A stretch of DNA of 64,000 nucleotides, from assembly GCA_015493505.1 (NCBI GenBank), contig WGDA01000153.1, positions 1,962-65,961 on the forward strand. Direction: 5' to 3'. The stretch's first letter is position 1, and every line of letters starts with the position of its first letter. The notes below the pieces were generated by a model, which was not told where the DNA came from, did no database searches, and saw only the letters and a program-made list of their open reading frames with translations. This DNA comes from Pseudomonadota bacterium (GTDB lineage Bacteria; Desulfobacterota; S145-22). Positions 6,101 to 64,000 of the stretch are shown here, piece by piece. A program made the position numbers and the translations under genes.

Positions 6101-7654
6101 TTATTCTTTTTTCTTCATTCCTGACAGGATGACTTTTATCAGGATGCCAGCCATGAAGAGAAGGCAGAGAAGGAGGAAGAGATTCCCGTATCGCTCGTAA
6201 AAGGTGGGGGGACCCTGCCTCAGGCGTACGACACCCCGGATAAAGCCTTCACTCTGCAGAGGCATCTTTACAAGGGTCCGTCCCGTGGGGCCGATGATTC
6301 CGGAAATGCCCGTTCCGGTGGCGCGGATGAGGTAACATCTCTCCTCCACGGCACGGTAGGCGCTTAAGCGGTAGTGCTGATATGGTCCCGGGGTGCGGCC
6401 AAACCAGGCATCGTTGGTGATGTTGACCAGCAGCCGGGCCCCATGCCGGACGAGCGCCCTGGAAAGGTCTGGGAAGATACCCTCAAAGCAGATGGTTACG
6501 CCAATCGGGCCGAATCCTGATTCAAGGGGCCTGATGACCTTTCCCGGTGTAAAGTCCTCTTCCGTTCCCACGATATTCTTCGCGAAGGGGAGCCACCGCC
6601 GAAGGGGGACGTACTCACCGAAAGGGACGAGGCGGACCTTGTCGTACCGCCCCAGGACTTTCCCGTTTCTCGAGAGCAGGTAGGCGCTGTTATGATAAAT
6701 GGTTTTGCCGGCTATCACGTCATAGGAAGTAGCGCCGAAGATCAGCATAAAGTGGTCCCGACGGGCCAGGTCCACCACCCGCTGGAAGAGGTTCGGTTCA
6801 TTCTGGATGTAAAACGTGAGTGCCGCCTCAGGCCAGACGACGAGATCAGGTTGAAAGCCGCTCACGGCCTGCCCGGAGATGCGAAGGTACCGTTTCAGCC
6901 CCTTGAGCTCCCAGGACGGTTTCCACTTGACGGATTGATCGATGTCCGGCTGGACGAGACAGACCTTCACTGTTTTCCAGGCGCGAATCTCTTTGAGCAC
7001 CCTTGGGATGCGCGTGTACCCATACCCCCAGACGACGATCATGAGAAGGCAGAGGAAAATGAGCTGGGCGAAGGCGGCGGGGGTTCGCTTTTCCCTGCTG
7101 TCGAGCCAGATTCTGAAGATGAGATAGTTGACGAGATAGATAAGGAATCCCAGGCCGTAAATCCCAGTAATATCCACGATTTGGGACAGAATTAAGTGGG
7201 GTGGCAAAGCCATTTCGAGCCCGCCCCACGGGAACCGGATCAGGGGAAGCCCACGGATGTACTCGATGAGCGTTGCCGCGAAGGGGAAGAGATAGGTGCA
7301 TTTCCAGCGATTCAGGAAGACATAAGTGACTCCCATCATTCCCCAGTAGAGGGAGAGGTACAGGATAAACAGCAAGGTCAGGGCCGCGGCGCCCCAGATC
7401 GGGAGGCCGCCGTACCGGTAAACGGAGACGCTGATCCAGTACATGGTGGTTGAAACGTGGATGACCCCCACGTAAAAACCTGACAGGAAGCCCTTCTTTA
7501 AGGAAGATTGCCAGTGCAGCAGGATGAAAAAAGGGATGAGGGCCAGCCAGATAAAGCCGTAATATCCGATAGGGGGAAAGGAGACGGTGAGCAGCGTGCC
7601 GGTCAGGGCGATCAGTGCCCATTCTCTTAAAAACTTTTTCCCCTTTTCTTTCAT
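6101..7654 (-). CDS. lnt: Apolipoprotein N-acyltransferase
   Basis: 517 aa. N-terminal multi-TM region followed by a CN-hydrolase domain, with the architecture typical of Lnt. Confidence 0.85.
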   Translation of the reverse strand: MKEKGKKFLREWALIALTGTLLTVSFPPIGYYGFIWLALIPFFILLHWQSSLKKGFLSGFYVGVIHVSTTMYWISVSVYRYGGLPIWGAAALTLLFILYLSLYWGMMGVTYVFLNRWKCTYLFPFAATLIEYIRGLPLIRFPWGGLEMALPPHLILSQIVDITGIYGLGFLIYLVNYLIFRIWLDSREKRTPAAFAQLIFLCLLMIVVWGYGYTRIPRVLKEIRAWKTVKVCLVQPDIDQSVKWKPSWELKGLKRYLRISGQAVSGFQPDLVVWPEAALTFYIQNEPNLFQRVVDLARRDHFMLIFGATSYDVIAGKTIYHNSAYLLSRNGKVLGRYDKVRLVPFGEYVPLRRWLPFAKNIVGTEEDFTPGKVIRPLESGFGPIGVTICFEGIFPDLSRALVRHGARLLVNITNDAWFGRTPGPYQHYRLSAYRAVEERCYLIRATGTGISGIIGPTGRTLVKMPLQSEGFIRGVVRLRQGPPTFYERYGNLFLLLCLLFMAGILIKVILSGMKKKE

Positions 7655-12619: not shown

Positions 12620-13909
12620 ATGAACATCCTGGTTATTGGCGGAGGCGGCAGAGAACATGCGCTGGTCTGGAAATTGAAACAGAGCGACGCGGCCAAGGCC
12701 ATCTTCTGCGCGCCGGGTAACGCGGGGATTCAGGAGGAGGCCGAGTGCTTCCCCGTCTCTCCGACGGATATTCCCGATCTTCTGACCCTGGCCAGGGAGA
12801 AGGCGATTGACATGGCCGTGGTCGGGCCGGAGGCCCCGCTGGTTGCCGGGATCGTGGACACGTTCACCGCCGCCGGAATCCCCATCATTGGGCCGGACAG
12901 GGCCGCCGCCCGTCTGGAGGGGAGTAAGGCCTTTACCAAGGAGCTTTTGCGGGAGGCCGGGGTTCCCACCGCGCCTTTTGAAACCTTCGACGCCCCGGAG
13001 AAAGCCCTTAAGGCCCTAAATGGAAAGTCCTACCCCCTCGTGGTCAAGGCCGACGGCCTGGCGGCGGGGAAGGGGGTCTTGATTGTCCGGGATCGCGGCG
13101 AGGCCGAGGCGGCCATTCGTGCCATCATGCTCGACAAAGCCTTTGGAGAGGCGGGAAACCGGGTTGTCCTGGAGGCCTTCCTTGAGGGGGAGGAGGCATC
13201 TTTTATCGTCCTGACGGATGGGGAAACGATTTTGCCCCTTGCCTCGTCCCAGGATCACAAGAGGATTCATGACGGGGATGTGGGCCCCAACACGGGGGGG
13301 ATGGGCGCGTACAGCCCGGCTCCGGTGGTGGACGCGGTCCTGCATGACCGCATCATGAAGGAGGTCATCGAGCCGGTGGTCGAGACAATGAACCGGCGGG
13401 GTACCCCCTTTCGTGGCATCCTCTACGCGGGTCTCATGATATCCGATGGCACGCCACACGTTCTGGAGTTCAATGTCAGGATGGGAGACCCCGAAACCCA
13501 GCCGATCCTGTTCCGCATGGAGGGAGACCTGGCCGAAACCCTTCTCCTCCTCCACCATCGACAGTTGCACAAGGCAGTCCTTTCCTGGCCATCCAATGCC
13601 GCCCTCTGCGTGGTCCTGGCGTCAGGGGGGTACCCGGGGAACTATGAGAAGGGGAAGGTGATTACCGGACTGGAGGAGTTGGCGGGACGGAAGGATATCA
13701 AAGTGTTTCACGCGGGGACAAAGAGGAACGAGTCAGGCGCCATTGTTACGAACGGGGGCCGCGTTCTGGGGGTCACCGCTCTCGCCCCGGATCTTTCCGC
13801 CTGCCGTGAGAAGGCCTATCAGGCCATTGAAGCGATTCATTTCGAGGGAATGGTGTATCGCAAAGACATCGGCCTCAAGGGGATTCAAAGGCTGTCGGCC
13901 TCCGCGTGA
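12620..13909 (+). CDS. purD: Phosphoribosylamine--glycine ligase
   Basis: N-terminus MNILVIGGGGREHALVWKL, an ATP-grasp core, and a length of 429 aa. Confidence 0.95.
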   Translation: MNILVIGGGGREHALVWKLKQSDAAKAIFCAPGNAGIQEEAECFPVSPTDIPDLLTLAREKAIDMAVVGPEAPLVAGIVDTFTAAGIPIIGPDRAAARLEGSKAFTKELLREAGVPTAPFETFDAPEKALKALNGKSYPLVVKADGLAAGKGVLIVRDRGEAEAAIRAIMLDKAFGEAGNRVVLEAFLEGEEASFIVLTDGETILPLASSQDHKRIHDGDVGPNTGGMGAYSPAPVVDAVLHDRIMKEVIEPVVETMNRRGTPFRGILYAGLMISDGTPHVLEFNVRMGDPETQPILFRMEGDLAETLLLLHHRQLHKAVLSWPSNAALCVVLASGGYPGNYEKGKVITGLEELAGRKDIKVFHAGTKRNESGAIVTNGGRVLGVTALAPDLSACREKAYQAIEAIHFEGMVYRKDIGLKGIQRLSASA

Positions 13910-15101: not shown

Positions 15102-16152
15102 CATCGCCGTGATTCCCGGGGACGGAACGGGACCGGAAGTGGTTCGCGAAGGGATGAAAGCCCTTGACGCCGCGGCGGAGAGGTTTGGATTTTCCATCGA
15201 GTATCACACCTTCCCCTACGGAGGGAAACACTACAAGGAAACGGGAGAAACCCTTCCGGACGCCGCTTTGGATGAACTTCGGAAATTTCCGGCCATTTTT
15301 CTCGGGGCCATTGGACACCCGGACGTGGCGCCGGGCATTCTTGAAACGGGGATTCTCCTCAAGTTGAGGTTTGGCCTCGACCAGTACGTGAACCTCCGGC
15401 CCATCAAACTGTATGAGGGGGTCGATACCCCCTTGAAAGACAAGGGGCCCAAGGATATCGACTTCGTGGTGATTCGTGAAAACACGGAAGGCCTGTACGC
15501 GGGAGCGGGGGGATTCCTGAAAAAAGGGACACCGGATGAGGTTGCCATCCAGGAATCCATCAATACCCGGAAGGGCGTGGAACGCTGCATCCGGTACGCC
15601 TTTGAGCTAACCCGCAGGCGAAACCGTGAAAAGAAGCTGACGCTGTGCGGAAAGACCAACGTCCTGACCTATGCCTTCGACCTGTGGCTCCGTACCTTCA
15701 ATGAGGTGGCGAAAGAATACCCGGACGTGACCACAGACTACGCCCATGTGGACGCCATCTGCATGTGGATGGTCAAGAACCCCGAAACCTTTGATGTAAT
15801 CGTTACGGACAACATGTTCGGGGATATCATTACTGATCTGGGCGCCATGATTCAGGGGGGGATGGGGATTGCTGCGGGAGGCAACATCAACCCCGATGGC
15901 ACCTCCATGTTTGAGCCCATTGGCGGCTCCGCCCCCAAATACGCTGGGAAGGATGTGATCAACCCCCTGGCCGCCATTTCCGCCGCGGGGATGATGATGG
16001 ATTTTCTTGGTGAAGAGAAGGCGGGACGCGCCATTGAAGAGGCGGTTCAGGCCGTGATTCCCCGGCTGAAAAGTCTCTCCGCGGGAAAGATGGGATACAC
16101 CACCCGACAGGTCGGGGATATGGTGGCGGAGACCATACGCGACCTGGGGTGA
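15085..16152 (+). CDS. Isocitrate/3-isopropylmalate dehydrogenase family enzyme (LeuB- or tartrate-dehydrogenase-like)
   Basis: 355 aa. N-terminus IAVIPGDGTGPEV, plus NMFGDIITDLGA and MFEPIGGSAPKYAGKD, which match the beta-decarboxylating dehydrogenase family. Confidence 0.8.
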   Translation: MTQTYNIAVIPGDGTGPEVVREGMKALDAAAERFGFSIEYHTFPYGGKHYKETGETLPDAALDELRKFPAIFLGAIGHPDVAPGILETGILLKLRFGLDQYVNLRPIKLYEGVDTPLKDKGPKDIDFVVIRENTEGLYAGAGGFLKKGTPDEVAIQESINTRKGVERCIRYAFELTRRRNREKKLTLCGKTNVLTYAFDLWLRTFNEVAKEYPDVTTDYAHVDAICMWMVKNPETFDVIVTDNMFGDIITDLGAMIQGGMGIAAGGNINPDGTSMFEPIGGSAPKYAGKDVINPLAAISAAGMMMDFLGEEKAGRAIEEAVQAVIPRLKSLSAGKMGYTTRQVGDMVAETIRDLG

Positions 16153-28536: not shown

Positions 28537-29981
28537 GGCGTGTGCCCCTCGATTTCGCGCGTTAGATGTTTCCCCTTTTCCGTCAGGCGGTACTTCTGCA
28601 AACGGCTGTTTGGCTTTTCAGGGTAGGTGTATTCTATCAATCCCTGTTCAAGCAAATTCTTAATCATGCGTTTGAAAGCGCCTGTTTTTGTCTCAAGCCC
28701 CAGGGCCTTTGCCATCTCTGAAGACGAAAGAGGGGTATTTGAAAGGAGCGCCAAGAGGGTTTTCCACTGGGCCCCTGACTGGGCCCTCAACTGGGCCCTC
28801 GACTGGGGCTTCAACTGTGCCGATTTTTTAACGGGAATTGCCTTCGCCAATGGGAAGAGGAAACGTACTCGCAGGCCCAGTTCCCTGATGGAAGGTTCCG
28901 GGAACCCCAGGGCCGCCGTTTGACTGAAGATGCGTGGCACGCCGCTACCCCACTGTTCTATGAGATTCAATTCGCGAAAGACGCGGGCGATGACTGGATT
29001 ACGGATTTTGGAGATTCCTTGTTTCATGTCGTCGACCGTTATGCCGGGAGGCAGGATGCCGGGGTTTTCAATCTCAATGCGGTCATCGAAAAAAGCTATT
29101 CGGACGGGGCCGCCCCGCTGGGACCAGTCGGCGTGTACCAAGGCGTTGATAACCGCTTCCCGAAGCGGTTCCAGTGGAATGCTCCAAACATCCTTGCGCC
29201 GAATATTGGAGAAGTCCGCGCCGCGCATGGCGTGTTTTTTTAGAAACAGCATGATGCTGTCCACGGATTGCGGCAGAGGCTCCTCAATCTCAATATGGTC
29301 GAAAATTTCTGATTTGTCTGTGCCGATGAAGCGTCCGCATTGGACCCAGCAGTCTGGGAAATGAAAGGTCCGGTCACGGCCGAAAAGCAGCACGCCACCC
29401 TTGGAAGGGACGGTTTTGCCCTGATTCTGAACAAGGATTTTAAGGGTGCGCAGCGCGCGATCATTTAGCTCCCTGATTCCGGAAAACACGTGGCGGGCGG
29501 CATCCAGGTTAAGGCCGTTGATGGAAAGCTCCGGCATGGGCATTTCGTCAAAAGAAACCCCTTCCACTGAGCGGCGCAATTCTGCAATCAGCTCCTTGTC
29601 CGCCTGCCTATTGCTGGAGCCCAGGCGAACGTAAACTCCGTTTTCCGGGCCTTCCGCTTTCAGCCAATGGGGACGCAGATTGCTGAGGAATACCTCGACC
29701 ACGAGCAGGGTTTTCCCTTCAACAGTAACAAGCTCGATATTGGGAACCAGGCGTGGAGAGATAGAGTCTGCGATTAAGTTGCTCAGGCGTTCTTCTTCGT
29801 CCAGCGGGTCTTCCACGCCGACAACTTCACGGGTCTTGTCCCGCACTCCGATGATAACTCTTCCTCCGGCAGTGTTGGCGAAGGCGGTTAGCGTTTTCAG
29901 CAGGTTTTGTGGCGAGGACAGGTCTCGTTTGAACTCAAGGGTTTTGCCCTCCGGAGCCTTGAGCAGCTCAGTGATTTTCAT
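28533..29981 (-). CDS. Schlafen-like AlbA_2/HATPase_c_4 putative DNA-binding protein (COG2865 family) embedded in the hsd operon
   Basis: 482 aa with an N-terminal AlbA_2-like divergent ATPase domain (TAFANTAGGRVIIGV) and a C-terminal wHTH. It overlaps hsdS and hsdM by a few nt on each side. Confidence 0.6.
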   Translation of the reverse strand: MKITELLKAPEGKTLEFKRDLSSPQNLLKTLTAFANTAGGRVIIGVRDKTREVVGVEDPLDEEERLSNLIADSISPRLVPNIELVTVEGKTLLVVEVFLSNLRPHWLKAEGPENGVYVRLGSSNRQADKELIAELRRSVEGVSFDEMPMPELSINGLNLDAARHVFSGIRELNDRALRTLKILVQNQGKTVPSKGGVLLFGRDRTFHFPDCWVQCGRFIGTDKSEIFDHIEIEEPLPQSVDSIMLFLKKHAMRGADFSNIRRKDVWSIPLEPLREAVINALVHADWSQRGGPVRIAFFDDRIEIENPGILPPGITVDDMKQGISKIRNPVIARVFRELNLIEQWGSGVPRIFSQTAALGFPEPSIRELGLRVRFLFPLAKAIPVKKSAQLKPQSRAQLRAQSGAQWKTLLALLSNTPLSSSEMAKALGLETKTGAFKRMIKNLLEQGLIEYTYPEKPNSRLQKYRLTEKGKHLTREIEGHTP

Positions 29982-35867: not shown

Positions 35868-36222
35868 TGGTGGAGGCGGCGGGAATCGAACCCGCGTCCG
35901 AGAGTCTTCGGCATGAGTCTCTACATGCTTATCCGACCTATTGCATTCGCCGATCAATTGCCGGTCGGCAGGCACCTTGATCGGCATAGCCTGAAGGTCT
36001 TAGCCGCTTTCCGTTAGGCAGCGAAAAACGGTGCAACCTGTCTCGATGACGCCTCGTCAGGGTGTGACAGGTTGACACCCTGGGAGACGTGGCGGTCAAT
36101 TAAGCCGCCAGAGCGTACTCGTAGTCGTTCGCATTTATGTTTATTTCCACCAGATTCCGGGCTGGCAGACCCCGGCATGCAACCCATACCTCAACTACTC
36201 CCGTCGAGCCCTTTTCGCCCCC
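35868..36222 (-). ncRNA. ssrA: tmRNA (SsrA), tag peptide ANDYEYALAA
   Basis: The minus-strand 5' end is GGGGGCGAAAAGGGCUCGACGGG and the 3' end is GGACGCGGGUUCGAUUCCCGCCGCCUCCACCA (tRNA-Ala-like acceptor with T-arm). An internal ORF reads GCG AAC GAC UAC GAG UAC GCU CUG GCG GCU UAA. Confidence 0.9.
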
Positions 36223-38554: not shown

Positions 38555-40512
38555 AACGTCTCCTTTTTTTGCCGGTTCTCTTTTTTATTGTGATCGCGTG
38601 CGCTCCGCCGGGCTATCGCCGTCCGGCGCGGCCGCCTCAGGCGCCGGCGAAACACGTGGTTTATCCTCCCCCCCGGAACATCGCCCTCTACGAGGAAGGG
38701 CGGGCCGCGTTCCAGGAAGAGAAAACCATCATCGCCCTGGAAAAACTGGACCGGTTCGTTAAGCTGAATCCGTCCAGCGATCTGACGGATGACGCCCTGT
38801 ATCTGATGGGGCAGATCTACCTGAAGCGGGACAACCCTTATGAGGCCCTGCGGTATTTCCAGAAAATCGAGAGAAATTTCCCCGGGAGCAACACGGTTCA
38901 GGAGGCGGTGTACGGTCAGGCGTACTGCTGGTACCGGCTGAAGGATTTGAAACGATCGAAAGAGGCTCTGAAGAGGCTCTTTGCCTTCTCCCCGCTGCCA
39001 AAGCCGCTCTTTATCCGGGCGGAAACACTTAAAGGGCACCTGTGCGTGCTGGAGGGAAAGGCCTCTTGCGGCATCGAGGCATACCTGACCGCGCGGTCCA
39101 AAGCCAGCAACGCCACGGAGATCGCGGTCCTCGACGGGTTTCTGGAAAAGGTGATTTTTGAAATCCGTGACCCCGATACCCTCAGGAGCCTCATGGAGGC
39201 TCACGAGGGCGATATCGCCGGAACGGCTGCGCGGGTCCGGCTATCGGAGATTCTCACGCTCAGGAAGGATTTCAAGGCGGCGAAGGCGCTTCTGCCGCCC
39301 TCCTTTGTGGAGGGCCTCACGGGCGCCCTGCGGCAAAAGGCGGGCAAGATTCTATCGGCCCTGCACCGGGCCTTCATCCGGAAGGTTGTCATCGGGTGCC
39401 TCCTGCCCCTCACGGGCCCCCAGGCGCCATTCGGACTCCGGGCTTTGAAGGGGATATTGCTTGCCACCGGGGCGTTTGAAACCACCCCCACGGATGTGGA
39501 CGTAACCCTGCTCGTCCGGGACACGGAGGGGAAGCCGGAAGTGGCAGCGAAGATGGCGAAAGACCTGGTGGAGCGGGGGCACGTCCAGGCGATTGTGGGC
39601 CCCATGTTCCTGAAAACGACCCGGGCGGCGGTGGATCAACTGCGCTCATCTCCCGTTCCCGTGATCAGCCTGTCCCAGGCGGACGGCGTGCCGGAGCTGG
39701 GACCGTTTGTTTTCAGGAATTGCCTCACACCTGATCAACAGGTCGAGAGGCTGGCGCGTTTTCTGATTCAGACCCTGCATGATCGAACCGCGGCGATCCT
39801 GTACCCCCATAACCCCTTTGGCATGAGGTACATGAAGCTGTTCTGGGAAGCGTTCGAAAAAATGGGCGGAGAGATCCGGGGCGCCGAATCGTACCTGCCC
39901 ACCGATACGGACTTTGGCACCCCCATCAAAAAGCTGGTGGGGCTGTACGATACCAAGGCGCGGTGGGAACGGGGAGACGAGCCGGACAAGGAGGGAAAAT
40001 TTCCCCCCGTTATCGATTTCAAGATCCTCTTTATTCCTGATATCTACAGCCGCGTGGTCCTGATTGCCCCGCAATTGGCCTTCTATGACGTGGTTGGCAT
40101 TACCCTGGCCGGGATCAACACCTGGGATGACCCTCAGTTGATTAAGGAGGGGAATCAGTATGTGCGCGGGTCCGTCTTTACGGACGGATTCTCACCCCTG
40201 TCCGATTCCCCGGCCGTCAAAAAGTTTGTGGGAGATTTTAGGGCGTTTTTTGACGAGACGCCCGAGATTCTGGCCGCCCAGGCCTATGACGCCACCCGGT
40301 TTCTGATCCGCTCGTTCAAGCAGACTTCCGTCGAAGACAGAGAAGCGCTGGAGAAGGCCCTGGAGACAAACACGGGGTATCACGGCGTCTCGGGACTGCG
40401 CTATTTTGACGAAGACGGGGAGGCGATCCGGGACGTCCTGGTTTTGACGGCTACTCGGCACAAGATTGTGCCGATCCCCGCGGCTCCGCTTCAATCCATT
40501 CCCTCCCAGTAA
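38551..40512 (+). CDS. Lipoprotein with N-terminal TPR region and C-terminal periplasmic-binding-protein (type I PBP) fold; LpoA-like
   Basis: Lipobox VIAC after a signal peptide and TPR-like helices. The C-terminal half resembles Leu/Ile/Val-binding proteins. Confidence 0.55.
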   Translation: MKRLLFLPVLFFIVIACAPPGYRRPARPPQAPAKHVVYPPPRNIALYEEGRAAFQEEKTIIALEKLDRFVKLNPSSDLTDDALYLMGQIYLKRDNPYEALRYFQKIERNFPGSNTVQEAVYGQAYCWYRLKDLKRSKEALKRLFAFSPLPKPLFIRAETLKGHLCVLEGKASCGIEAYLTARSKASNATEIAVLDGFLEKVIFEIRDPDTLRSLMEAHEGDIAGTAARVRLSEILTLRKDFKAAKALLPPSFVEGLTGALRQKAGKILSALHRAFIRKVVIGCLLPLTGPQAPFGLRALKGILLATGAFETTPTDVDVTLLVRDTEGKPEVAAKMAKDLVERGHVQAIVGPMFLKTTRAAVDQLRSSPVPVISLSQADGVPELGPFVFRNCLTPDQQVERLARFLIQTLHDRTAAILYPHNPFGMRYMKLFWEAFEKMGGEIRGAESYLPTDTDFGTPIKKLVGLYDTKARWERGDEPDKEGKFPPVIDFKILFIPDIYSRVVLIAPQLAFYDVVGITLAGINTWDDPQLIKEGNQYVRGSVFTDGFSPLSDSPAVKKFVGDFRAFFDETPEILAAQAYDATRFLIRSFKQTSVEDREALEKALETNTGYHGVSGLRYFDEDGEAIRDVLVLTATRHKIVPIPAAPLQSIPSQ

Positions 40513-42434: not shown

Positions 42435-42573
42435 TACGCTCCTTTTTCAGATTTTCTTGAAATTTTTCCTCGTAAATGGTAGAGATGCTCATCAGGAAAG
42501 GCGATGAAGTCCGCCTCTAAACGCCAGCAGGCTGATGACTTCTTGCCGTGAAAAAGCGGGAAAGGAGGCCGTC

Positions 42574-43404
42574 ATGCCTGATCCGACACTTGTTGAACGC
42601 ACCTGCCAATATGTCCTTGAACGCCAATGCCAGTCAGGAGGTTTTTGTTTTTACCGCCTGGAAGAACCCAACGGGGCGGATACCTTTTATGCCCTCGCGA
42701 CGCTGCACCTGTTGGGGAGAAAGATTTCCTCTGAGGAGACCAGCCGGTTTCTGGAGGCCACCCAGAAAGAAGACGGGACGTTTGACAACCTGTATCAGGC
42801 GTATTACACTATTCAGGGTCTCGGGTATCTGAACAGGCCCTTGAAGCGGGATCCCCGGCCCTTTTTGGAGACCGTAATCAACCGTTTCCCCGTTGAGAAC
42901 GCCACGCTGGAGACACAACTGAAGCGCCTCGATATCCTGACCGATCTCTGCGCGGACCTCTGCGTGGAAATTCCTCCCAAAAGGCGGGAGTCGATGATTG
43001 ATTTCATCCTTTCCTACCGCAACGCCGACAAGGGGTTCGGCACGCCCTATTCCAGCCTGTTATCTACTTCTTACGCCCTGTCCTGCCTGGGAAAACTATC
43101 CTACCCGGTGTCCGGCCTGGAAGCGGACCGGTTTCTTCAGGCGTGCGAAAACCCTATTCACGGTTTTCTGGATGTGCCCGACATGGCCCCATCTTTTCTG
43201 GAACATATCCTGGCGGGTGCCGTTGCGTCGCGCGTGTTGGGGTATCGTCCCAGGTATCTGGATACGTGCCAGCAGTTTGTCACGCATTGCCAAAGCACGA
43301 ATGGCGGATTTTCCCGTTCACCGGGGGGGCTGCCCAGCCTTCAGGATACCTACCGGGCCATCCTGGCGCTGATTCACCTCGAGGCCATCGTCTCCGGGAC
43401 TTGA
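42574..43404 (+). CDS. Prenyltransferase/squalene-oxidase repeat (alpha-alpha toroid) protein
   Basis: Repeated QxxxGGF-like segments (QCQSGGFCFY, TNGGFSRS). Start is set at the ATG after the RBS ggaaaggagg; the ORF track begins at 42535. Confidence 0.45.
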   Translation: MPDPTLVERTCQYVLERQCQSGGFCFYRLEEPNGADTFYALATLHLLGRKISSEETSRFLEATQKEDGTFDNLYQAYYTIQGLGYLNRPLKRDPRPFLETVINRFPVENATLETQLKRLDILTDLCADLCVEIPPKRRESMIDFILSYRNADKGFGTPYSSLLSTSYALSCLGKLSYPVSGLEADRFLQACENPIHGFLDVPDMAPSFLEHILAGAVASRVLGYRPRYLDTCQQFVTHCQSTNGGFSRSPGGLPSLQDTYRAILALIHLEAIVSGT

Positions 43405-57468: not shown

Positions 57469-57545
57469 GGGGCGATTAGCTCAGCGGATAGAGCGTTGGT
57501 CTCCGGAACCAAAGGTCGCGGGTTCGATTCCCGCATCGCCCTCCA
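57469..57545 (+). tRNA. tRNA-Arg (anticodon CCG)
   Basis: Anticodon loop ctccgga with a GGTTCGATTCC T-arm. An integrase gene follows immediately. Confidence 0.85.
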
Positions 57546-57758
57546 TTTTTTAAGTTCTCTTGACATCTATTTTCCTTTATTTTATAAGACTTATAAGCGA
57601 TTTAACGGGATAGGATATTATGAGCTTGTTCTATAGAATTCTATTAAAAACCATCAAAAACCCGTTTAAAAATGGGAAAAAGTTGGGAAGAAATTGGGAA
57701 GAATGGCGGTGATGTTTAACAACAAATAACAAATCATCATAGATGGTTAGGAGACGTC

Positions 57759-59114
57759 ATGGCTGGAAATGATGATGATAAAAATGGGAAAAAAGTTGGG
57801 AAACGGCGAAAATACGGAAGTGACAAGCGTTATCCGGGCGTCCGCTGGTATGATTCCCGGATCAAAGGGCGGGTTTTTTATCTCTATTACCGCAACCCCG
57901 CCGGAAGGCTGATTGAACGAAAAGTAGGGACTCAGCATGAAGGATGGACGGCAAAACTTGTTCATGAGCGCCGTCTGGACCTCATAAAAAAATTCGAGCG
58001 TGGCGAAGGCGGCAAGGGGAAGAAGATTCGCACCTTTGGGGATGCGGTGGATGTCTTTTTTGAGCGATGTCAAAAAAGAGGGATAAAGGGAATCGCCCAG
58101 GAACGTTCCCGGCTTCGCTGGCTTTCCCATCTTTCCGATCGGCGGTTTGTGGGTGTTCTTTCCGAACTTGTTCTTACGGAGATTGTGGAAAAGATGCGGG
58201 AAGCGGGGCAATCATCAACAAGTATTCATCACGCCCTGGCTCTTTTTCGCCGCGTCGTCAACGCCGCCCTTGAAGACAAGCGGTGCCCCATTAAAGAGCT
58301 TGACCCTTATTTTAAGAAAGTTCTTTCGGATAAAATATTTGAATTTAGCCCTGACCCAGGCGGAAAAGTAGAACGGCTTCCAATGGATCAAGTAAGGACC
58401 TTTGTGGAAACCCTGGAAACCTGGCCGGACCGCTTTCACGCAAATATTGTCATTCTCGCCCTTTTTACCGGTGCGCGGAAGGGAAATATTTTAAAGTTGG
58501 AATGGTCGGATATTGATTGGGATCAAGACAAAATCATTCTTCGCAAAGAGAAAACCAAAGCGAAGCGGCGTGACACCCCAATTCCCATGAATGACATGGC
58601 GAAAAAGGCTTTACAAGAGATGCGAACCATTCGCGACAATGCCCTTGAACGGTTGGAGATGCTTCGACAAAAGGCCCTGGAAGGCCCGCCCCATGTTCGC
58701 TCAAATGCCGTAAAAGAGTTTCTTCTTTTAATGCGAAAAACCCCTTATGTCGTAAGTGAAAACTGGGACCCTGAGACGGCCCCGGAAACGGTTGAAAGAA
58801 TTCTTCATACCCCCGTTAATAAGATGGGTTCCCCCTATGTTTTTCCGGGAAAGGGTGGTGGTCAACGGGTCGAGATTCGAAGAGGAATTCAAAAGATACG
58901 CGCGGCGGTGGGAATCCCGCCCGACTTCCGCATGCTTCATGGGTCAAGACATCAATTTGCAAGTTTATTAGCCCTCAGTGGCGCTCCGGCCGCGGTCATA
59001 AAGGAATTGTTGGGTCATTCTGATATTCGGATGTCTGAACGATATATTGATATGACTTATAGGGTCAAGCAAGAGGCATCCCAAAAAGTTGTTGAGCAAA
59101 TCAAGGGATATTGA
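57759..59114 (+). CDS. int: Tyrosine-type site-specific integrase
   Basis: C-terminal catalytic region HGSRHQFASLLALSGAPAAVIKELLGHSDIRMSERYIDM carries the R..H..R..Y signature. The protein is 451 aa. Confidence 0.88.
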   Translation: MAGNDDDKNGKKVGKRRKYGSDKRYPGVRWYDSRIKGRVFYLYYRNPAGRLIERKVGTQHEGWTAKLVHERRLDLIKKFERGEGGKGKKIRTFGDAVDVFFERCQKRGIKGIAQERSRLRWLSHLSDRRFVGVLSELVLTEIVEKMREAGQSSTSIHHALALFRRVVNAALEDKRCPIKELDPYFKKVLSDKIFEFSPDPGGKVERLPMDQVRTFVETLETWPDRFHANIVILALFTGARKGNILKLEWSDIDWDQDKIILRKEKTKAKRRDTPIPMNDMAKKALQEMRTIRDNALERLEMLRQKALEGPPHVRSNAVKEFLLLMRKTPYVVSENWDPETAPETVERILHTPVNKMGSPYVFPGKGGGQRVEIRRGIQKIRAAVGIPPDFRMLHGSRHQFASLLALSGAPAAVIKELLGHSDIRMSERYIDMTYRVKQEASQKVVEQIKGY

Positions 59115-59605: not shown

Positions 59606-60616
59606 GTGGTTATTATGGAATCCCCAGGTAAAAACGACACATTTCGTGCCCGAAGATATACGAACAGTATAAAGGCCCTTGCCCCGACGCCCGAGGCACA
59701 AAAAAAGCTTATTCAATCCATCATTGAATTGGGCGAAGAAACCCTTCGTTACGACTTCACAAGAAAAACATCACGAGATTGGGAACGTGAAGAAAACCGC
59801 CGGAACTGGGAGGCGTGGCGGTGTTATATCCAAAAACATCCCGTCTTACCAAAGAAGGATGAAACGGCTTTCATGTTATTTTACGCGGAGATGACGGGGT
59901 TTATCGAGGCCGCCACCTGTTTTGGGGGATTCCTGAAAACGGATGAAGAAAAAACGGTAAAATTGAGAGAGCTTGTCACGTTGTGCGTGGAAAAGCATCG
60001 CCACGGACTTTCGCCCCAGGCCGCCCTTTACAAGTGGATCACCGCCGCCGGCGGGGTCTTTCTTATGACCATGGCGGCGGGATTCCCCCCCAACCCGCCG
60101 ATGATTCCCGTAAGGTTTCACCTCGCGTGGATGTCCGAAAGGCTTCGGCCCGACTCCTGGGGGATTGTTACACGAAACCTAAATGAAGTTGTTCGGGCGT
60201 GGGCGTGTCTCTTGGATGAAACGGAGCGGGAGGCCCTTTTAAGGGATTATCGTGACCGGATAAAAGGCCTTTCCTCTGCCGAATGGGGATATGAGGCCTT
60301 AAAGTTTCTCCTTGTCGAATACCTCGGGCGCGGGCGTATTCGCCTTGTTCAACCTGACGACCCCCTTGAAGAAGAAAAAACCTCATTGCCCCTGGACGCC
60401 ACCCCCGGCCACATCAAGGCCCGCATCAAGGACATCATCCGGAATATCTGCCGCCACGCGCGCCGGGAAACGGAACGAAAGACGGGAACCCCGATGACCG
60501 CCGGAGAAGTGGCGTATCATCTCTCGATCATCCTATCATACTTGAAGATTCAGACCCCGGTAAAAAAAAGGGGATATTCGGTGTATCACCTGAGAAATAT
60601 TTTTAGGGGTCAATAA
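59606..60616 (+). CDS. Hypothetical protein (336 aa), island cargo
   Basis: Long ORF with no recognisable motifs. Located between int and the replication module. Confidence 0.45.
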   Translation: MVIMESPGKNDTFRARRYTNSIKALAPTPEAQKKLIQSIIELGEETLRYDFTRKTSRDWEREENRRNWEAWRCYIQKHPVLPKKDETAFMLFYAEMTGFIEAATCFGGFLKTDEEKTVKLRELVTLCVEKHRHGLSPQAALYKWITAAGGVFLMTMAAGFPPNPPMIPVRFHLAWMSERLRPDSWGIVTRNLNEVVRAWACLLDETEREALLRDYRDRIKGLSSAEWGYEALKFLLVEYLGRGRIRLVQPDDPLEEEKTSLPLDATPGHIKARIKDIIRNICRHARRETERKTGTPMTAGEVAYHLSIILSYLKIQTPVKKRGYSVYHLRNIFRGQ

Positions 60617-60725
60617 CACTCCCAGGGTGGAAAAACGCGCCACGGGCGAAATTTCGAAGCGAGACCCCTATTTTCGGGGAAGGCACGACCCCTTAACCCC
60701 GATGGGTTCCCACCCCTCTTTTTTT

Positions 60726-61031
60726 AAGGGACACCTGGTATTTTTGACATTTGAGGCATAACAGGAAATATTTTTTTTCTTTCTTCCTTATATCCCGCGA
60801 TCATATAAGAAAATGTCAATCAGTTTATCCCGCGTAACTGTGAAAAAAGGGACACCGGGAGGGTAAATGCTCTATTTTCCCTATAGTAAAATACCTAATT
60901 TTTAGATTCCTTAAATATATGTAGAACACTCCCTAAGTGTCCCTTTTCCCTGTTTTGTGGTGTTCGCGAGAACACAACAGAAAATAATCGACGCCCACAA
61001 AGCCCCAGGTGTCCCTCGGGCGTGTCCGCGG
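60726..61031. repeat. Iteron-like array: AAGGGACACC at 60726-60735 (+) and 60847-60856 (+), inverted copies at 60938-60946 and 61008-61016, plus a gtgtccg half-site at 61021
   Basis: The 9-10-bp motif recurs four times in a 2-forward, 2-reverse arrangement within the 670-bp non-coding gap upstream of the primase gene. The outer pair, gggacacctgg and ccaggtgtccc, are perfect 11-bp inverted repeats. Confidence 0.6.
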
Positions 61032-61286
61032 AAAATAAAAGAGCATTTAAGACAAAGAACGAAGAACGCCCCAGAGTAAAAACTTGGGATGCCTTCCGCC
61101 GCGGAGCGGTGAAAATCGCGCCGATCACTTCCCAATTTCAAAAAATTTGAAGCAAAATCCCGCCGAACCTTGCCAAAACCCCGAAAGTCGGCGGGATTAT
61201 TATTTACCATTAGATAATATCAATTTGACAACAAAGGCAATAGTGTTTATAAATAGAGCATGATACACGGTGCGAGGCTGTAAAGG

Positions 61287-62369
61287 ATGGATAAGGCGGA
61301 CATTGAAAGAATCAAGATGGCGGTGGATATCGTGGCGCTTATCAGCGAAAATGTTTCACTTCAAAGAAAGGGAAAATATTTTTTCGGTCTTTGCCCCTTC
61401 CATGAGGAAAAGACCCCGTCTTTCGCTGTCGATCCCGAAAGACGGCGGTTTCGCTGTTACGGGTGCGGTGCCTCCGGGGACGCCCTCGAATATTTAGAAA
61501 AAGCGAAAGGGCTGACCTTTCAAGAGGCCCTCCGGGAGTTGGCCGGCCGCGCGGGGGTCGAGATCAAAATTTCATCTCCCGGCCCCGTCTTTAACCGCCC
61601 CTTGACGGTCCCCGAGAGGCGGAAGGAAGTTTTTAGCCCTCCGGCCATCGAATTCCCAAACAAAATATGGCGCGAACACAGCGTCAAATTTTTGATTGAA
61701 AGCCATTTAGAGCTTATGGAAGACAAGGCGGTCCTTCGTTATCTCGGAGGCCGGGGAATCCCACCGGGAACGGCGGAAATGTTTGGCTTGGGGTGGAATT
61801 CAAAAGATGGTTACCGGGACCGTGGCGCGTGGGGTCTGGATGCCACAAGTGGGAAAAGTCTTTATTTACCCGCTGGAATTACAATTCCATCTTATCGGGA
61901 CAGAATGCTTGTAAGAATCAGGATTCGGCGGCGCGAGGGCGAATCCCGATATTTTATCGTGGCGGGGTCGGCGTCTTGCCCCATGGTTTTTCCCCCCGGG
62001 GAAACCGTGCCCGCTATTTATGTCATCGTCGAAAGCGAGCTTGACGCCATCATGATTGCCGGACTTCAAACACCCGTTGGTGTGGTCGCCACCGGGTCCG
62101 CCTTTGCGAAGCCCGATGAAGCCCTTCACGAAACCCTTTCCAGGGCGAAGCGGCTCCTCATCGCCCTGGACAACGACACCGCCGGGCAAAATGCCGCGCG
62201 ATGGTGGCTTGATATCTATGACCACGCGCGGCGGGTTGCCTTCCCCGATGGCGCGAAAGACCCCGGGGAGCTTTACCAAAAAACCGGAGATATCATGGGA
62301 TGGCTCAATGAAAATTTGCCGGAGCGCCTTCGAAGGCGCGAAAGACGGGAAGGAGGTGAAAAGATATGA
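61287..62369 (+). CDS. DNA primase (CHC2 zinc finger + Toprim)
   Basis: CPFHEEKTPSFAV...CYGCGASGDALEY is a CHC2 zinc finger. The Toprim acidic motif is LIALDNDTAGQNAA. Confidence 0.8.
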   Translation: MDKADIERIKMAVDIVALISENVSLQRKGKYFFGLCPFHEEKTPSFAVDPERRRFRCYGCGASGDALEYLEKAKGLTFQEALRELAGRAGVEIKISSPGPVFNRPLTVPERRKEVFSPPAIEFPNKIWREHSVKFLIESHLELMEDKAVLRYLGGRGIPPGTAEMFGLGWNSKDGYRDRGAWGLDATSGKSLYLPAGITIPSYRDRMLVRIRIRRREGESRYFIVAGSASCPMVFPPGETVPAIYVIVESELDAIMIAGLQTPVGVVATGSAFAKPDEALHETLSRAKRLLIALDNDTAGQNAARWWLDIYDHARRVAFPDGAKDPGELYQKTGDIMGWLNENLPERLRRRERREGGEKI

Positions 62370-62572
62370 CGGAATGGATGAATACCCGTGAAATGGCGGA
62401 ACGGCTTCGCATTTCGGAGAAAACGGCGATCGCGTGGCGGTATCAGCGCCGCGGTCCCCGGTTTTATAAACTCGGTCCGCGGACGGTTCGTTATCGGCGT
62501 GAAGACATCGAGGCCTTCGCCCGGTCGATGCCCGTGGGAACTGTTGACCAACCGCCCGCCGATCCGGAGTGA
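62366..62572 (+). CDS. AlpA/excisionase-like HTH DNA-binding protein
   Basis: 68 aa. NTREMAERLRISEKTAIAWRYQRRGPRFYKLGPRTVRYRREDIEAF matches the phage AlpA/MerR-like HTH pattern. Confidence 0.65.
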   Translation: MTEWMNTREMAERLRISEKTAIAWRYQRRGPRFYKLGPRTVRYRREDIEAFARSMPVGTVDQPPADPE

Positions 62573-62763: not shown

Positions 62764-63096
62764 ATGAAAAGACGTGACGAATTCCAAAACGTTGACCACG
62801 AAAAACTTATGGTTTACGCCCGTCAAGCCCTTCTGGCTTGGCTGGAGGCGTCAAGGGCTCTGATTGAAATTCGGGGGCTTTACGGCCCGTGGTATCGCAC
62901 ACAAAACCCACGCTCGATGGCGGAACTTTCGAAGGAAGAACGGTTGGTTGTCGAGGAACTGGACCGGCTCGAACACGCCCCGTTCGGTGCCTGCGAGGCC
63001 TCATTTGCCCGGGTTTTCAAGATTCTGGGCGATCCCGACAACGAACTGATAAACCCTCTCGGAATTAAGGGAGACGGAAACGATGCGGTCCAATGA
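62764..63096 (+). CDS. Hypothetical protein (110 aa)
   Basis: ORF only. Confidence 0.35.
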   Translation: MKRRDEFQNVDHEKLMVYARQALLAWLEASRALIEIRGLYGPWYRTQNPRSMAELSKEERLVVEELDRLEHAPFGACEASFARVFKILGDPDNELINPLGIKGDGNDAVQ

Positions 63097-63146: not shown

Positions 63147-64000
63147 ATGAAAAGCGTTGATTCCCTCGATCCGGCTTTCGTTCAATCGTGTCTTGACCGT
63201 GCGCAACGCGGCGATGGCGAACTGTTCGCCCACCTTTTTCGGGATGAATTCTTTTATGAACCGAACGCCAACGAATGGTATTATTGGACGGGACACACCT
63301 GGGCGATCGATATGGAGAATAAACACCTCGCCGCGGTGGATCGGGTGGCCCAGGCCTATCTCGCCGCCGCGGACCGGTGTTTTCAGGAACGCCGCGCCCT
63401 AACCCAAACACCGGAAGACAAAAGGCGGGATGGGCAATTAAAGAGGCTTCAAGAGGCCTTCCTTAAACGCGGGCGTCAATTACGCACCGCGGACGCCCGG
63501 CGGAAGGCCTTGGAATTTGCTGTTTCCATCGAGAATCCCTTGATCACGACGGCGGACCGTCTCGATCAACATCCCCTTTTGATCGGCACCCCGAACGGCG
63601 TTATCAACCTGGAGCTTGGAGACTTCGAAGAAGGCAAGCCCGGGCAATTCATCACGAAGGCGACGGCGGTGAAATGGGCGGGGTTTAATGCCCCGTGCTC
63701 TACCTGGGAAAGAATCTTGATTGAAATTTTCAACGGAGACACCCAGGTTCCCCGTTATCTTCAGCGGGTCATCGGATATGCCCTCACAGGGAAACCTAAT
63801 CGGGATGTCGTCTTTTTTCTCGTGGGCAGGGGTCGCAACGGGAAATCCCTCATCGCGAAAACCCTTGTTGAAGTCTTGGCCCCTTATGCGGCGACAATTC
63901 AAAGCGAGACCCTTTTGGCCGGGGTTCGGCGTGCCGCCGGCTCCCCTAATCCGGAAATTCTCAGGCTCCGCGGTTTAAGACTCGCCTTTGCCAGTGAAAC
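63147..64000 (+). CDS. P4-family phage/plasmid primase C-terminal domain with SF3 helicase (partial, continues beyond window)
   Basis: Open frame with no stop before the window end. Contains the WYYWTGHTW segment and Walker A VGRGRNGKS. Confidence 0.7.
   Translation, partial: MKSVDSLDPAFVQSCLDRAQRGDGELFAHLFRDEFFYEPNANEWYYWTGHTWAIDMENKHLAAVDRVAQAYLAAADRCFQERRALTQTPEDKRRDGQLKRLQEAFLKRGRQLRTADARRKALEFAVSIENPLITTADRLDQHPLLIGTPNGVINLELGDFEEGKPGQFITKATAVKWAGFNAPCSTWERILIEIFNGDTQVPRYLQRVIGYALTGKPNRDVVFFLVGRGRNGKSLIAKTLVEVLAPYAATIQSETLLAGVRRAAGSPNPEILRLRGLRLAFASE

Follow-up and report, generated by a model that had tools for sequence, protein, structure and literature searches.

A candidate replication-origin module with opposed short repeats, present in two copies around the replication genes of a 9-kb integrative island

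The DNA analysed here, called the window throughout, is a stretch of 64,000 nucleotides of contig WGDA01000153.1 from a Desulfobacterota bacterium, and in its last part begins an integrative island of 9.0 kb, which is a new and rare element. In a 670-bp gap of this island (60617-61286), between a 336-aa open reading frame (ORF) and a DnaG-type primase gene, short repeats stand in two opposed groups around an A+T-rich core. We believe that this array is probably one of two near-identical copies of a replication-origin module of the island. Judged by analogy, the best reading is an iteron origin of a known kind, that of Staphylococcus aureus pathogenicity islands (SaPIs) and of satellite phage P4, and the presence of the whole module twice would be its unusual twist. 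The reading as an origin is well supported, and the reading as an operator region is weaker.

The consensus GGGACACYK occurs in four full copies in the gap, at 60728 and 60849 on the plus strand and at 60935 and 61007 on the minus strand, and a degenerate fifth copy follows. The order of orientations is + + - - (-), and the opposed sets flank a core of 71% A+T (60860-60935), with a peak of 80%, compared with a window background of 45%. The four copies, two forward and two reverse, had been listed by the first-pass annotation of this DNA, whose coordinates were right to 1-2 nt, and the degenerate half-site that it mentioned was recognized as the fifth site of Table 1. The exact 8-mer AGGGACAC was found at 60727 and 60848 (plus strand) and at 60937-60944 and 61009-61016 (minus strand), with one further copy in 64 kb, at 15525. 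The outer sites form a perfect inverted repeat, as noted earlier, but its length is 12 nt instead of 11 (AGGGACACCTGG, 60727-60738 with 61005-61016), and 266 nt separate its arms. An inner perfect 11-nt inverted pair, AAAAGGGACAC (60845-60855 with 60937-60947), joins sites 2 and 3. Successive sites, with a consensus of 9-13 bp, are spaced by 121, 86, and 72 bp. Site 3 is followed by a degenerate tandem copy, AGGGAGTGTT, and the palindrome after it has arms (GTGTTC/GAACAC) that resemble the motif core with one mismatch.

The motif cluster is non-random. Among 5000 dinucleotide shuffles of the gap, 2 contained an 8-mer with at least four copies, and none of 40 shuffles of the whole window did. 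GGGACACYK had 6 matches in the window, four of them in the array, compared to 2.05 expected, and at least six matches occurred in 0 of 100 shuffles; outside the array, its frequency in the 64-kb window was that of chance. The real window contains two other four-copy 8-mer clusters, at 28766-28874 (ACTGGGCC, three copies at a 12-nt period and one inverted) and at 40215-40442 (CGTCAAAA), both probably coding repeats. Thus, clustering alone is not unique and is not our main argument, and the weight is carried by the extended consensus and the comparative data. The earlier description of the gap as non-coding held. It contains short ORFs only, the longest being 99 aa on the minus strand (60911-61210) without Pfam match; family searches gave no match for any of these ORFs, no convincing gene was found there, and L161, a near-identical contig with public gene calls, has none called in this gap. 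When the gap was used as a DNA query, phage and plasmid collections returned no match.

Key context for the array is provided by the island itself. The tail of the window is 99.6% identical to the public contig L161, which runs beyond the window end, and the second module copy was read there. A repeat search and blastn self-comparison of L161, followed by alignment, placed it at 13487-13831 of that contig, 4058 bp downstream of copy 1 and 89% identical to it. It lies about 2.4 kb past the window end and starts about 100 bp after the stop codon of the helicase gene, which ends at L161 13381, and the pair brackets the primase, HTH_17, 110-aa protein, and helicase genes. The spacing of sites is almost the same in both copies, and all 8 matches to GGGACACYK in the 21-kb locus L161 fall inside the two modules. 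When the copies were compared, 65 of 67 positions in the five sites and 30 of 30 in the palindrome were identical, compared to 206 of 250 in the rest (Fisher p = 3e-5). With fewer differences at the sites and the palindrome, both copies look selectively maintained at these sub-elements.

Close relatives of the island proteins were found in only one other element type (L162, L163, and L164), which also sits at a tRNA-Arg gene according to its att repeats. In this sister island, the integrase is 53% identical to the present one, the primase 55%, the HTH_17 protein 44%, the small protein 71%, the helicase 53%, and the MazE/PIN pair 91-93%. The gene order differs, the primase gene of the sister adjoining its integrase gene, and the long internal duplication is absent. 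A search of related elements for the motif, which the first-pass annotation had advised, showed that it is kept in the equivalent gaps: in L162 (15.3 kb), all 6 matches to GGGACACYK lie in the two gaps flanking the HTH_17-117aa-helicase operon, where 0.48 were expected in the locus and at least six occurred in 0 of 200 shuffles. An unbiased k-mer count over the non-coding gaps, two per island, placed GGGACAC first among the 7-mers common to all four, with 4, 4, 3, and 3 copies. Directly after the helicase terminator of L162 come two motif copies in tandem at a distance of 10 bp, and then 197 bp of 68% A+T; the sister island has AGGGACACTTAGGGACACTT in tandem.

Close relatives were also sought in sequence collections. 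A primase scan of GTDB representative genomes and IMG/VR yielded only matches of at most 36% identity or short matches to the zinc-finger region, and the genome matches mostly look like ordinary chromosomal primase genes. The helicase scan gave two matches of 30% in Joint Genome Institute (JGI) metagenome contigs and none in IMG/VR. A profile search with the 110-aa protein found two members only, both in the known islands, among 5.8 billion proteins. Relatives of the island proteins are annotated from metagenome-assembled genomes of Desulfobacterota type.

A wider family was formed by five helicase relatives, 37-42% identical to the island helicase (L166, L167, L169, L170, and L171), mostly in prophage-like contexts with integrase, repressor-type helix-turn-helix, terminase, portal, or capsid genes nearby. 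Directly 3' of its helicase gene, each of the five has a motif of its own, 8-9 bp long, with copies in both orientations flanking an A+T-rich stretch. In L167, TGGACCTT is present in 12-13 copies and is the top repeat cluster of the locus; L171 has 6 copies of GGGAGGAT in the orientations + + - - - -; and in L169, three tandem copies of TCATCCTA are followed by 1-2 inverted ones, with a stretch of 92% A+T between the groups. L166 has three copies of AACGCTCCA and no others in the locus, and L170, the weakest case, has three copies of AACGGTCC. This recurrence shows that the repeat array goes with the helicase gene, while its sequence changes with the element. The primase gene comes after the helicase gene in four of the five relatives. 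As a separate observation, D5-type helicase and zinc-finger primase genes are neighbours in L166, L167, L169, and L170, most of which are prophage-like, and the L166 primase (P0003) is 52% identical to that of the island; such phages are the probable source of the island replication module.

The protein proposed to recognize the sites is the helicase, taken in full from L161. It scored 83 bits with Pfam D5_N and 203.9 bits with TIGR01613, 'phage/plasmid primase, P4 family' (cut-off 108.7), and 20.3 bits with DUF5906, which is under the cut-off of 27.6. In the PHROG comparison, its 506 aa matched the helicase two-thirds of phage primase-helicases, and it aligned with residues 401-731 of P4 alpha with an hhalign probability of 86%. 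Its structural model had a predicted local distance difference test score (pLDDT) of 85, with the superfamily 3 (SF3) helicases C962R of African swine fever virus and E5 of monkeypox virus as best Foldseek matches. At its C-terminus (residues 407-492), the model contains a confident helix-strand-helix-helix-strand-strand unit that may be winged-helix-like.

From these data, the most likely course of replication can be proposed, in which the choice of binder follows from the position of the helicase gene and from analogy. After excision of the island, the D5/P4-alpha-family SF3 helicase would bind GGGACACYK through its C-terminal winged-helix-like domain. The two forward sites facing two to three reverse sites across the 71% A+T core would allow helicase rings to assemble on both sides and open the core; the separate DnaG-type primase would then make primers, which a host polymerase would extend. 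Copy 2, directly 3' of the helicase gene, occupies the usual origin position of SaPI islands and of the prophage relatives. Copy 1, the one inside the window, stands where the replication operon has its 5' end and may be either a second cis site, crr-like and acting by cooperation or copy-number control, or a second origin. The pair brackets the genes much as P4 ori and crr bracket the alpha operon.

Several observations weigh against the proposed origin. The spacing of the sites, 72-121 bp, is wide when set beside that in SaPIs, P4, and the prophage relatives. Each of the latter has one array only, so a requirement for two is not common to the family. Next to sites 1 and 3 stand promoter-like hexamers, which would also suit a regulatory role. 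Covariation of protein and motif can be compared in just two island types, and the C-terminal domain of the helicase alone, aligned with the P4 alpha origin-binding domain 1KA8, gave an hhalign probability of 3.9%, which is not significant.

The first-pass annotation had proposed either an origin or a repressor/AlpA operator region. The former gained from the duplicate 3' of the helicase gene, the sister-island motif, the five relatives, and the SaPI/P4 layout. As operators, the sites would bind an island regulator, the HTH_17/AlpA-like protein or the 110-aa protein, and switch the replication operon and transcripts starting inside the module. The gap is indeed upstream of the primase-HTH_17-110aa-helicase operon, with an HTH_17 gene within it, promoter-like hexamers lie by site 1 (60744-60772), by site 3 on the minus strand, and by the sister tandem sites, and AlpA is a key activator in the satellites known as PICMIs, minimalist chromosomal islands that phages induce (PMC10803314). 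However, the best operon promoter is overlapped by none of the sites, which are 210-500 bp upstream of it here and 290-620 bp in L162, and copy 2 sits 3' of the helicase gene, where no operon starts for about 600 bp. The arrays track the helicase: those of the relatives adjoin its gene although no HTH_17 gene was called in the retrieved locus (L166, L167, and L171) or it is kilobases off (L169 and L170), and the motif is unchanged between the islands while the HTH_17 protein is only 44% identical. We thus consider an operator array unlikely.

Nested inverted repeats could also act through RNA structure or as single-stranded or cruciform DNA, for instance in a small RNA gene or a single-strand initiation site, instead of as protein sites on duplex DNA. 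Although 60715-61065 folds better than shuffles (z = -3.1 on the plus and -4.8 on the minus strand, 0 of 100 shuffles being as good) and has a promoter-like site at its left end and a hairpin downstream, the low folding energy arises because two forward and two reverse copies of one motif are present. Sister-island sites are tandem or dispersed and not nested, differences between copies 1 and 2 are not compensatory, and the gap had no meaningful Rfam match, the sole one to E = 1 being eukaryotic snoR9 with 15.2 bits (E = 0.69) and a gathering score of 90, which leaves such an element very improbable. At gathering thresholds, Rfam returned known RNAs only. We give hardly any credence to a neutral segment duplicated by recombination, with motif copies that have no role: rearrangements did occur in the lineage, as the different gene order of the sister (primase by integrase) and its lack of the long duplication indicate, but the sites and the palindrome are spared by the substitutions that separate the copies (p = 3e-5), and the motif was kept in both sister gaps though their surroundings are no longer alignable. 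Some other DNA transaction seems just as far-fetched, be it through arm-type integrase or excisionase sites, a helper-phage packaging signal, or a partition site. The island encodes an integrase and an excisionase-like protein and, if it is a satellite, must carry some packaging signal; against this, attL is 3.2 kb away from the arrays and attR about 1.4 kb, TGGGAA units (57673-57700) and a 35-nt exact repeat by attR occupy the places expected for arm-type sites, and no terminase or partition gene was found among the island proteins (gene calls, PHROGs, and Pfam). Arm-type sites were rejected on this distance from att and on the separate att-proximal repeat family.

Other signals near the array were surveyed and are listed with the remaining features in Table 1. 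In copy 2, the promoter-like site inside the module retains TTGACA, with AACAAT as its second hexamer. On the minus strand, a promoter-like GGGACA-18-TATATT adjoins site 3, and the tandem sites of the sister island carry GGGACA-17-TATATT. The best candidate promoter of the primase operon was not listed by the scan, whose rule needs T at position 6 of the second hexamer; in L162, TTGACA-18-CATAAT is found about 220 bp upstream of the operon. The terminator-like hairpin lies between the module and the primase-operon promoter, outside the duplicated segment, is overlapped by a minus-strand terminator-like stem (61174-61151), and could be a terminator of transcripts leaving the module. Two other repeats were noticed here. 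AAA(T/A)AGAGCAT occurs three times, at 60864-60877 (inverted, in the A+T-rich core), 61037-61049 (right edge of the module), and 61251-61261, the last overlapping the -10 of the primase promoter and forming an 11-nt perfect inverted repeat with 60867-60877. It is of borderline significance and less conserved in copy 2, and could, as an operator, connect the operon promoter with the module. Two units of TATCCCGCG lie between sites 1 and 2 at a distance of 35 bp (60791-60799 and 60826-60834), and both units read TATCACGYG in the second module copy, a concerted C-to-A change that suggests a second, copy-specific binding motif.

Table 1. Features of the repeat array and of the island within the window
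Feature	Position	Strand	Remarks
tRNA-Arg(CCG) gene	57470..57546	+	ARAGORN and Rfam
attL	57498-57546	+	3' 49 nt of tRNA-Arg
Tyrosine integrase, 451 aa	57759..59114	+	Pfam Phage_integrase 73.3 bits; PHROG integrase 1.5e-45
336-aa ORF	59606..60616	+	no assigned function; upstream of gap
Origin-like module, copy 1	60715..61060	.	~345 bp; contains all motif copies
Site 1	60726..60738	+	AAGGGACACCTGG; outer arm of 12-nt inverted repeat; TTGACA 5 nt further on; 13/13 identical in copy 2
Promoter-like site inside module	60744..60772	+	TTGACA-17-AATATT; consensus scan, 10/12 matches; candidate
Site 2	60847..60859	+	AAGGGACACCGGG; 13/13 identical in copy 2
A+T-rich core	60860..60932	.	between forward and reverse sites; candidate DNA-unwinding region
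Site 3	60933..60947	-	AAAAGGGACACTTAG; inner arm of 11-nt inverted repeat with site 2
Palindrome	60953..60982	.	TTTTGTGGTGTTC-GCGA-GAACACAACAGAA; 30/30 identical in copy 2
Site 4	61003..61017	-	GAGGGACACCTGGGG; outer arm of 12-nt inverted repeat; 61003-61029 27/27 identical in copy 2
Degenerate fifth site	61019..61029	-	GCGGACACGCC, read from sequence; 13 nt from site 4, same orientation; conserved in copy 2
Hairpin, terminator-like	61156..61198	+	11-bp stem AATCCCGCCGA...TCGGCGGGATT, 21-nt loop, then ATTATTT
Best candidate promoter of primase operon	61225..61253	+	TTGACA-17-TATAAA; read from sequence
DnaG-type primase, 360 aa	61287..62369	+	CHC2 zinc finger and Toprim; Pfam Zn_ribbon_DnaG 109 bits, Toprim_2 36 bits; PHROG DNA primase
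HTH_17 protein, 68 aa, AlpA/excisionase-like	62366..62572	+	Pfam HTH_17 41 bits, cut-off 27; PHROG 'excisionase and transcriptional regulator'
110-aa protein	62764..63096	+	no assigned function; 71% identical in sister island
D5/P4-alpha-family SF3 helicase, 5' part	63147..64000	+	506 aa in full, runs off window; proposed iteron-binding initiator

The island is bounded by tRNA-Arg repeats, with rpoB, rpoC, and tRNA-Arg(CCG) as its upstream neighbours. A direct repeat of 49-58 nt, corresponding to the tRNA 3' end, is found twice in L161, 9.0 kb apart (6206-6263 and 15209-15266). Between the borders, the genes are ordered as integrase, two small ORFs, the 336-aa ORF, the gap, DnaG-type primase, HTH_17 protein, 110-aa protein, the 506-aa D5_N helicase, a second gap, the MazE/PIN pair, and attR. 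The 336-aa ORF had no match in Pfam, PHROGs, NCBIfam, or PADLOC and no tblastn match in the sister island L162, and no credible defence match was obtained when cargo ORFs were searched with PADLOC. The 110-aa protein is the best-conserved protein of the replication operon between the islands, only the MazE/PIN pair being closer (91-93%); its AlphaFold model had a pLDDT of 58, and no inference was made from it.

Some further elements of the island and the window were recorded. Just inside attL, TGGGAA units recur at an 11-bp period (window 57655-57700 and 57785-57802), a 35-nt exact repeat lies just inside attR (L161 15124-15158 and 15336-15370), and TGGGAAAA repeats occupy the equivalent att-proximal place of the sister island (L162 2639-2743); this family likely represents arm-type integrase or excisionase sites. 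The MazE/PIN pair is 91-93% identical between the islands, compared to 44-71% for the rest of the island, and the palindrome TTCTTACAAGTAAGAA, just upstream of mazE in both (L161 14380-14400 and L162 10385-10405), is likely an antitoxin operator. A G+C-rich non-coding element with repeated GGCGGCCCGGG units, 75-85% identical between the islands, is located in different gaps (L161 13899-14130; L162 5826-5845, 6445-6532, 6606-6624, and 9930-10080) and is not in the window gap. Elsewhere in the window, a fluoride riboswitch at 42491-42551 (Rfam RF01734, 43.9 bits) overlaps the annotated start of ORF 42535-43404, and a tmRNA gene with the tag peptide ANDYEYALAA is encoded on the minus strand at 35868-36222.

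With these results, an anonymous 670-bp gap becomes a testable cis element, and the island obtains clear borders from attL at tRNA-Arg to attR. They also offer a practical rule for annotating prophages and islands, namely to look behind a D5/P4-alpha-family helicase gene for an A+T-rich stretch flanked by opposed repeats of 8-9 bp that are specific to the element. P4 requires crr besides ori, and the two-copy layout provides a second, independent system in which to ask why that distant site is needed. If both copies are needed, the island would be a compact model of long-range origin cooperation; if one copy suffices, the other would be a candidate copy-number or incompatibility element.

Compared with iteron plasmids of the Rep_3/RepA type (pSC101, F, P1, and RK2), the island shares repeated initiator sites beside an A+T-rich unwinding region. 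In those plasmids, iterons of 17-22 bp form regularly spaced tandem arrays with a single orientation, whereas the island sites are short, dispersed, and of mixed orientation. The term iteron-like, used in the first-pass annotation, is therefore apt for function and does not describe a tandem array of 17-22 bp as in Rep_3-type origins. As initiator they use a double winged-helix protein of the Rep_3 type, by which host DnaB is recruited, while the island candidate is itself a helicase, and no Rep_3-type protein is encoded in the island according to gene calls, PHROGs, and Pfam. In some iteron plasmids, copy number is controlled by additional iteron clusters away from the origin, and by this analogy copy-number control is a possible role of the second module copy.

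PICMIs resemble the island as small elements with an integrase, an AlpA-type helix-turn-helix protein, and one small unassigned gene between alpA and the replicase, without capsid-remodelling or terS genes (PMC10803314). They are known from Vibrionaceae, are integrated next to fis, and have DUF3987 or DUF5906 as primase markers (PMC10803314). The island is located at tRNA-Arg and not at fis, its helicase falls under the DUF5906 cut-off, which places it outside the PICMI definition, and it adds a DnaG-type primase and a MazE/PIN pair. In the PICMI paper, the main text does not contain the word 'iterons', and no iteron origin is described there (PMC10803314).

A parallel in layout is given by SaPIs and other phage-inducible chromosomal islands. 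The SaPI origin lies immediately downstream of rep, with iterons split by a central A+T-rich region, at least two on each side and opposed; the C-terminal winged helix of Rep recognizes the iterons, and a primase gene lies upstream of rep (PMC9371898). Likewise, the island has a separate primase gene upstream of its helicase gene and copy 2 immediately downstream of the helicase gene, with at least two opposed iterons on each side of an A+T-rich region. For the helicase C-terminus, the predicted structure suggests a winged-helix-like unit. The two systems differ in their iterons, those of SaPIs being 5-6 nt long, 6-12 in number, and closely packed, while the island has a core of 9 nt in 4-5 copies over 300 bp. 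Among AAA+ helicases, the Rep proteins of SaPIs fall into the pre-sensor II insert clade (PMC9371898), to which the D5/SF3-type helicase of the island does not belong. A second complete origin copy at the operon 5' end is not described for SaPIs, and packaging or capsid-remodelling genes are not present in the island.

P4 provides the parallel for the duplication. In the P4 record (NC_001609), 8-bp type-1 repeats are found in both orientations in ori and in crr, about 4.8 kb apart; ori is upstream of the leftward operon, which runs from the excisionase-like ORF88 (vis) to alpha, and crr is just past the alpha terminator. P4 and the island thus have in common short repeats of both orientations at two places, about 4-5 kb from each other and on either side of the replication operon, as well as a helicase of the P4 family, an element size of about 10 kb, a tyrosine integrase, and integration at a tRNA gene. 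Unlike alpha, in which they are fused, primase and helicase are separate in the island. The motif differs, the spacing is 72-121 bp compared to 9-45 bp in P4, and the island cis elements are 89%-identical copies of about 345 bp, whereas P4 ori and crr share 8-bp repeats only and crr has its own repeat of 2 x 120 bp. By the P4-like definition of SatelliteFinder (PMC10085698), the island has 3 of the 7 core components: the integrase, the AlpA-type regulator, and the alpha functions (TIGR01613 helicase and separate primase) are present, and none of Psu, Delta, Sid, and Ash/epsilon was found among the remaining island proteins with Pfam, PHROGs, and NCBIfam. On a bolder reading, which we put forward tentatively and consider doubtful, the island would represent an undescribed, minimalist, satellite-like family outside Enterobacterales and Vibrionaceae, with two element types among 5.8 billion proteins, whose replication needs two complete, selectively maintained origin copies bracketing the replication genes. 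It would then be an independent, whole-module version of the P4 ori-crr arrangement, with a 'split alpha' made of a separate DnaG-type primase and a D5-type helicase.

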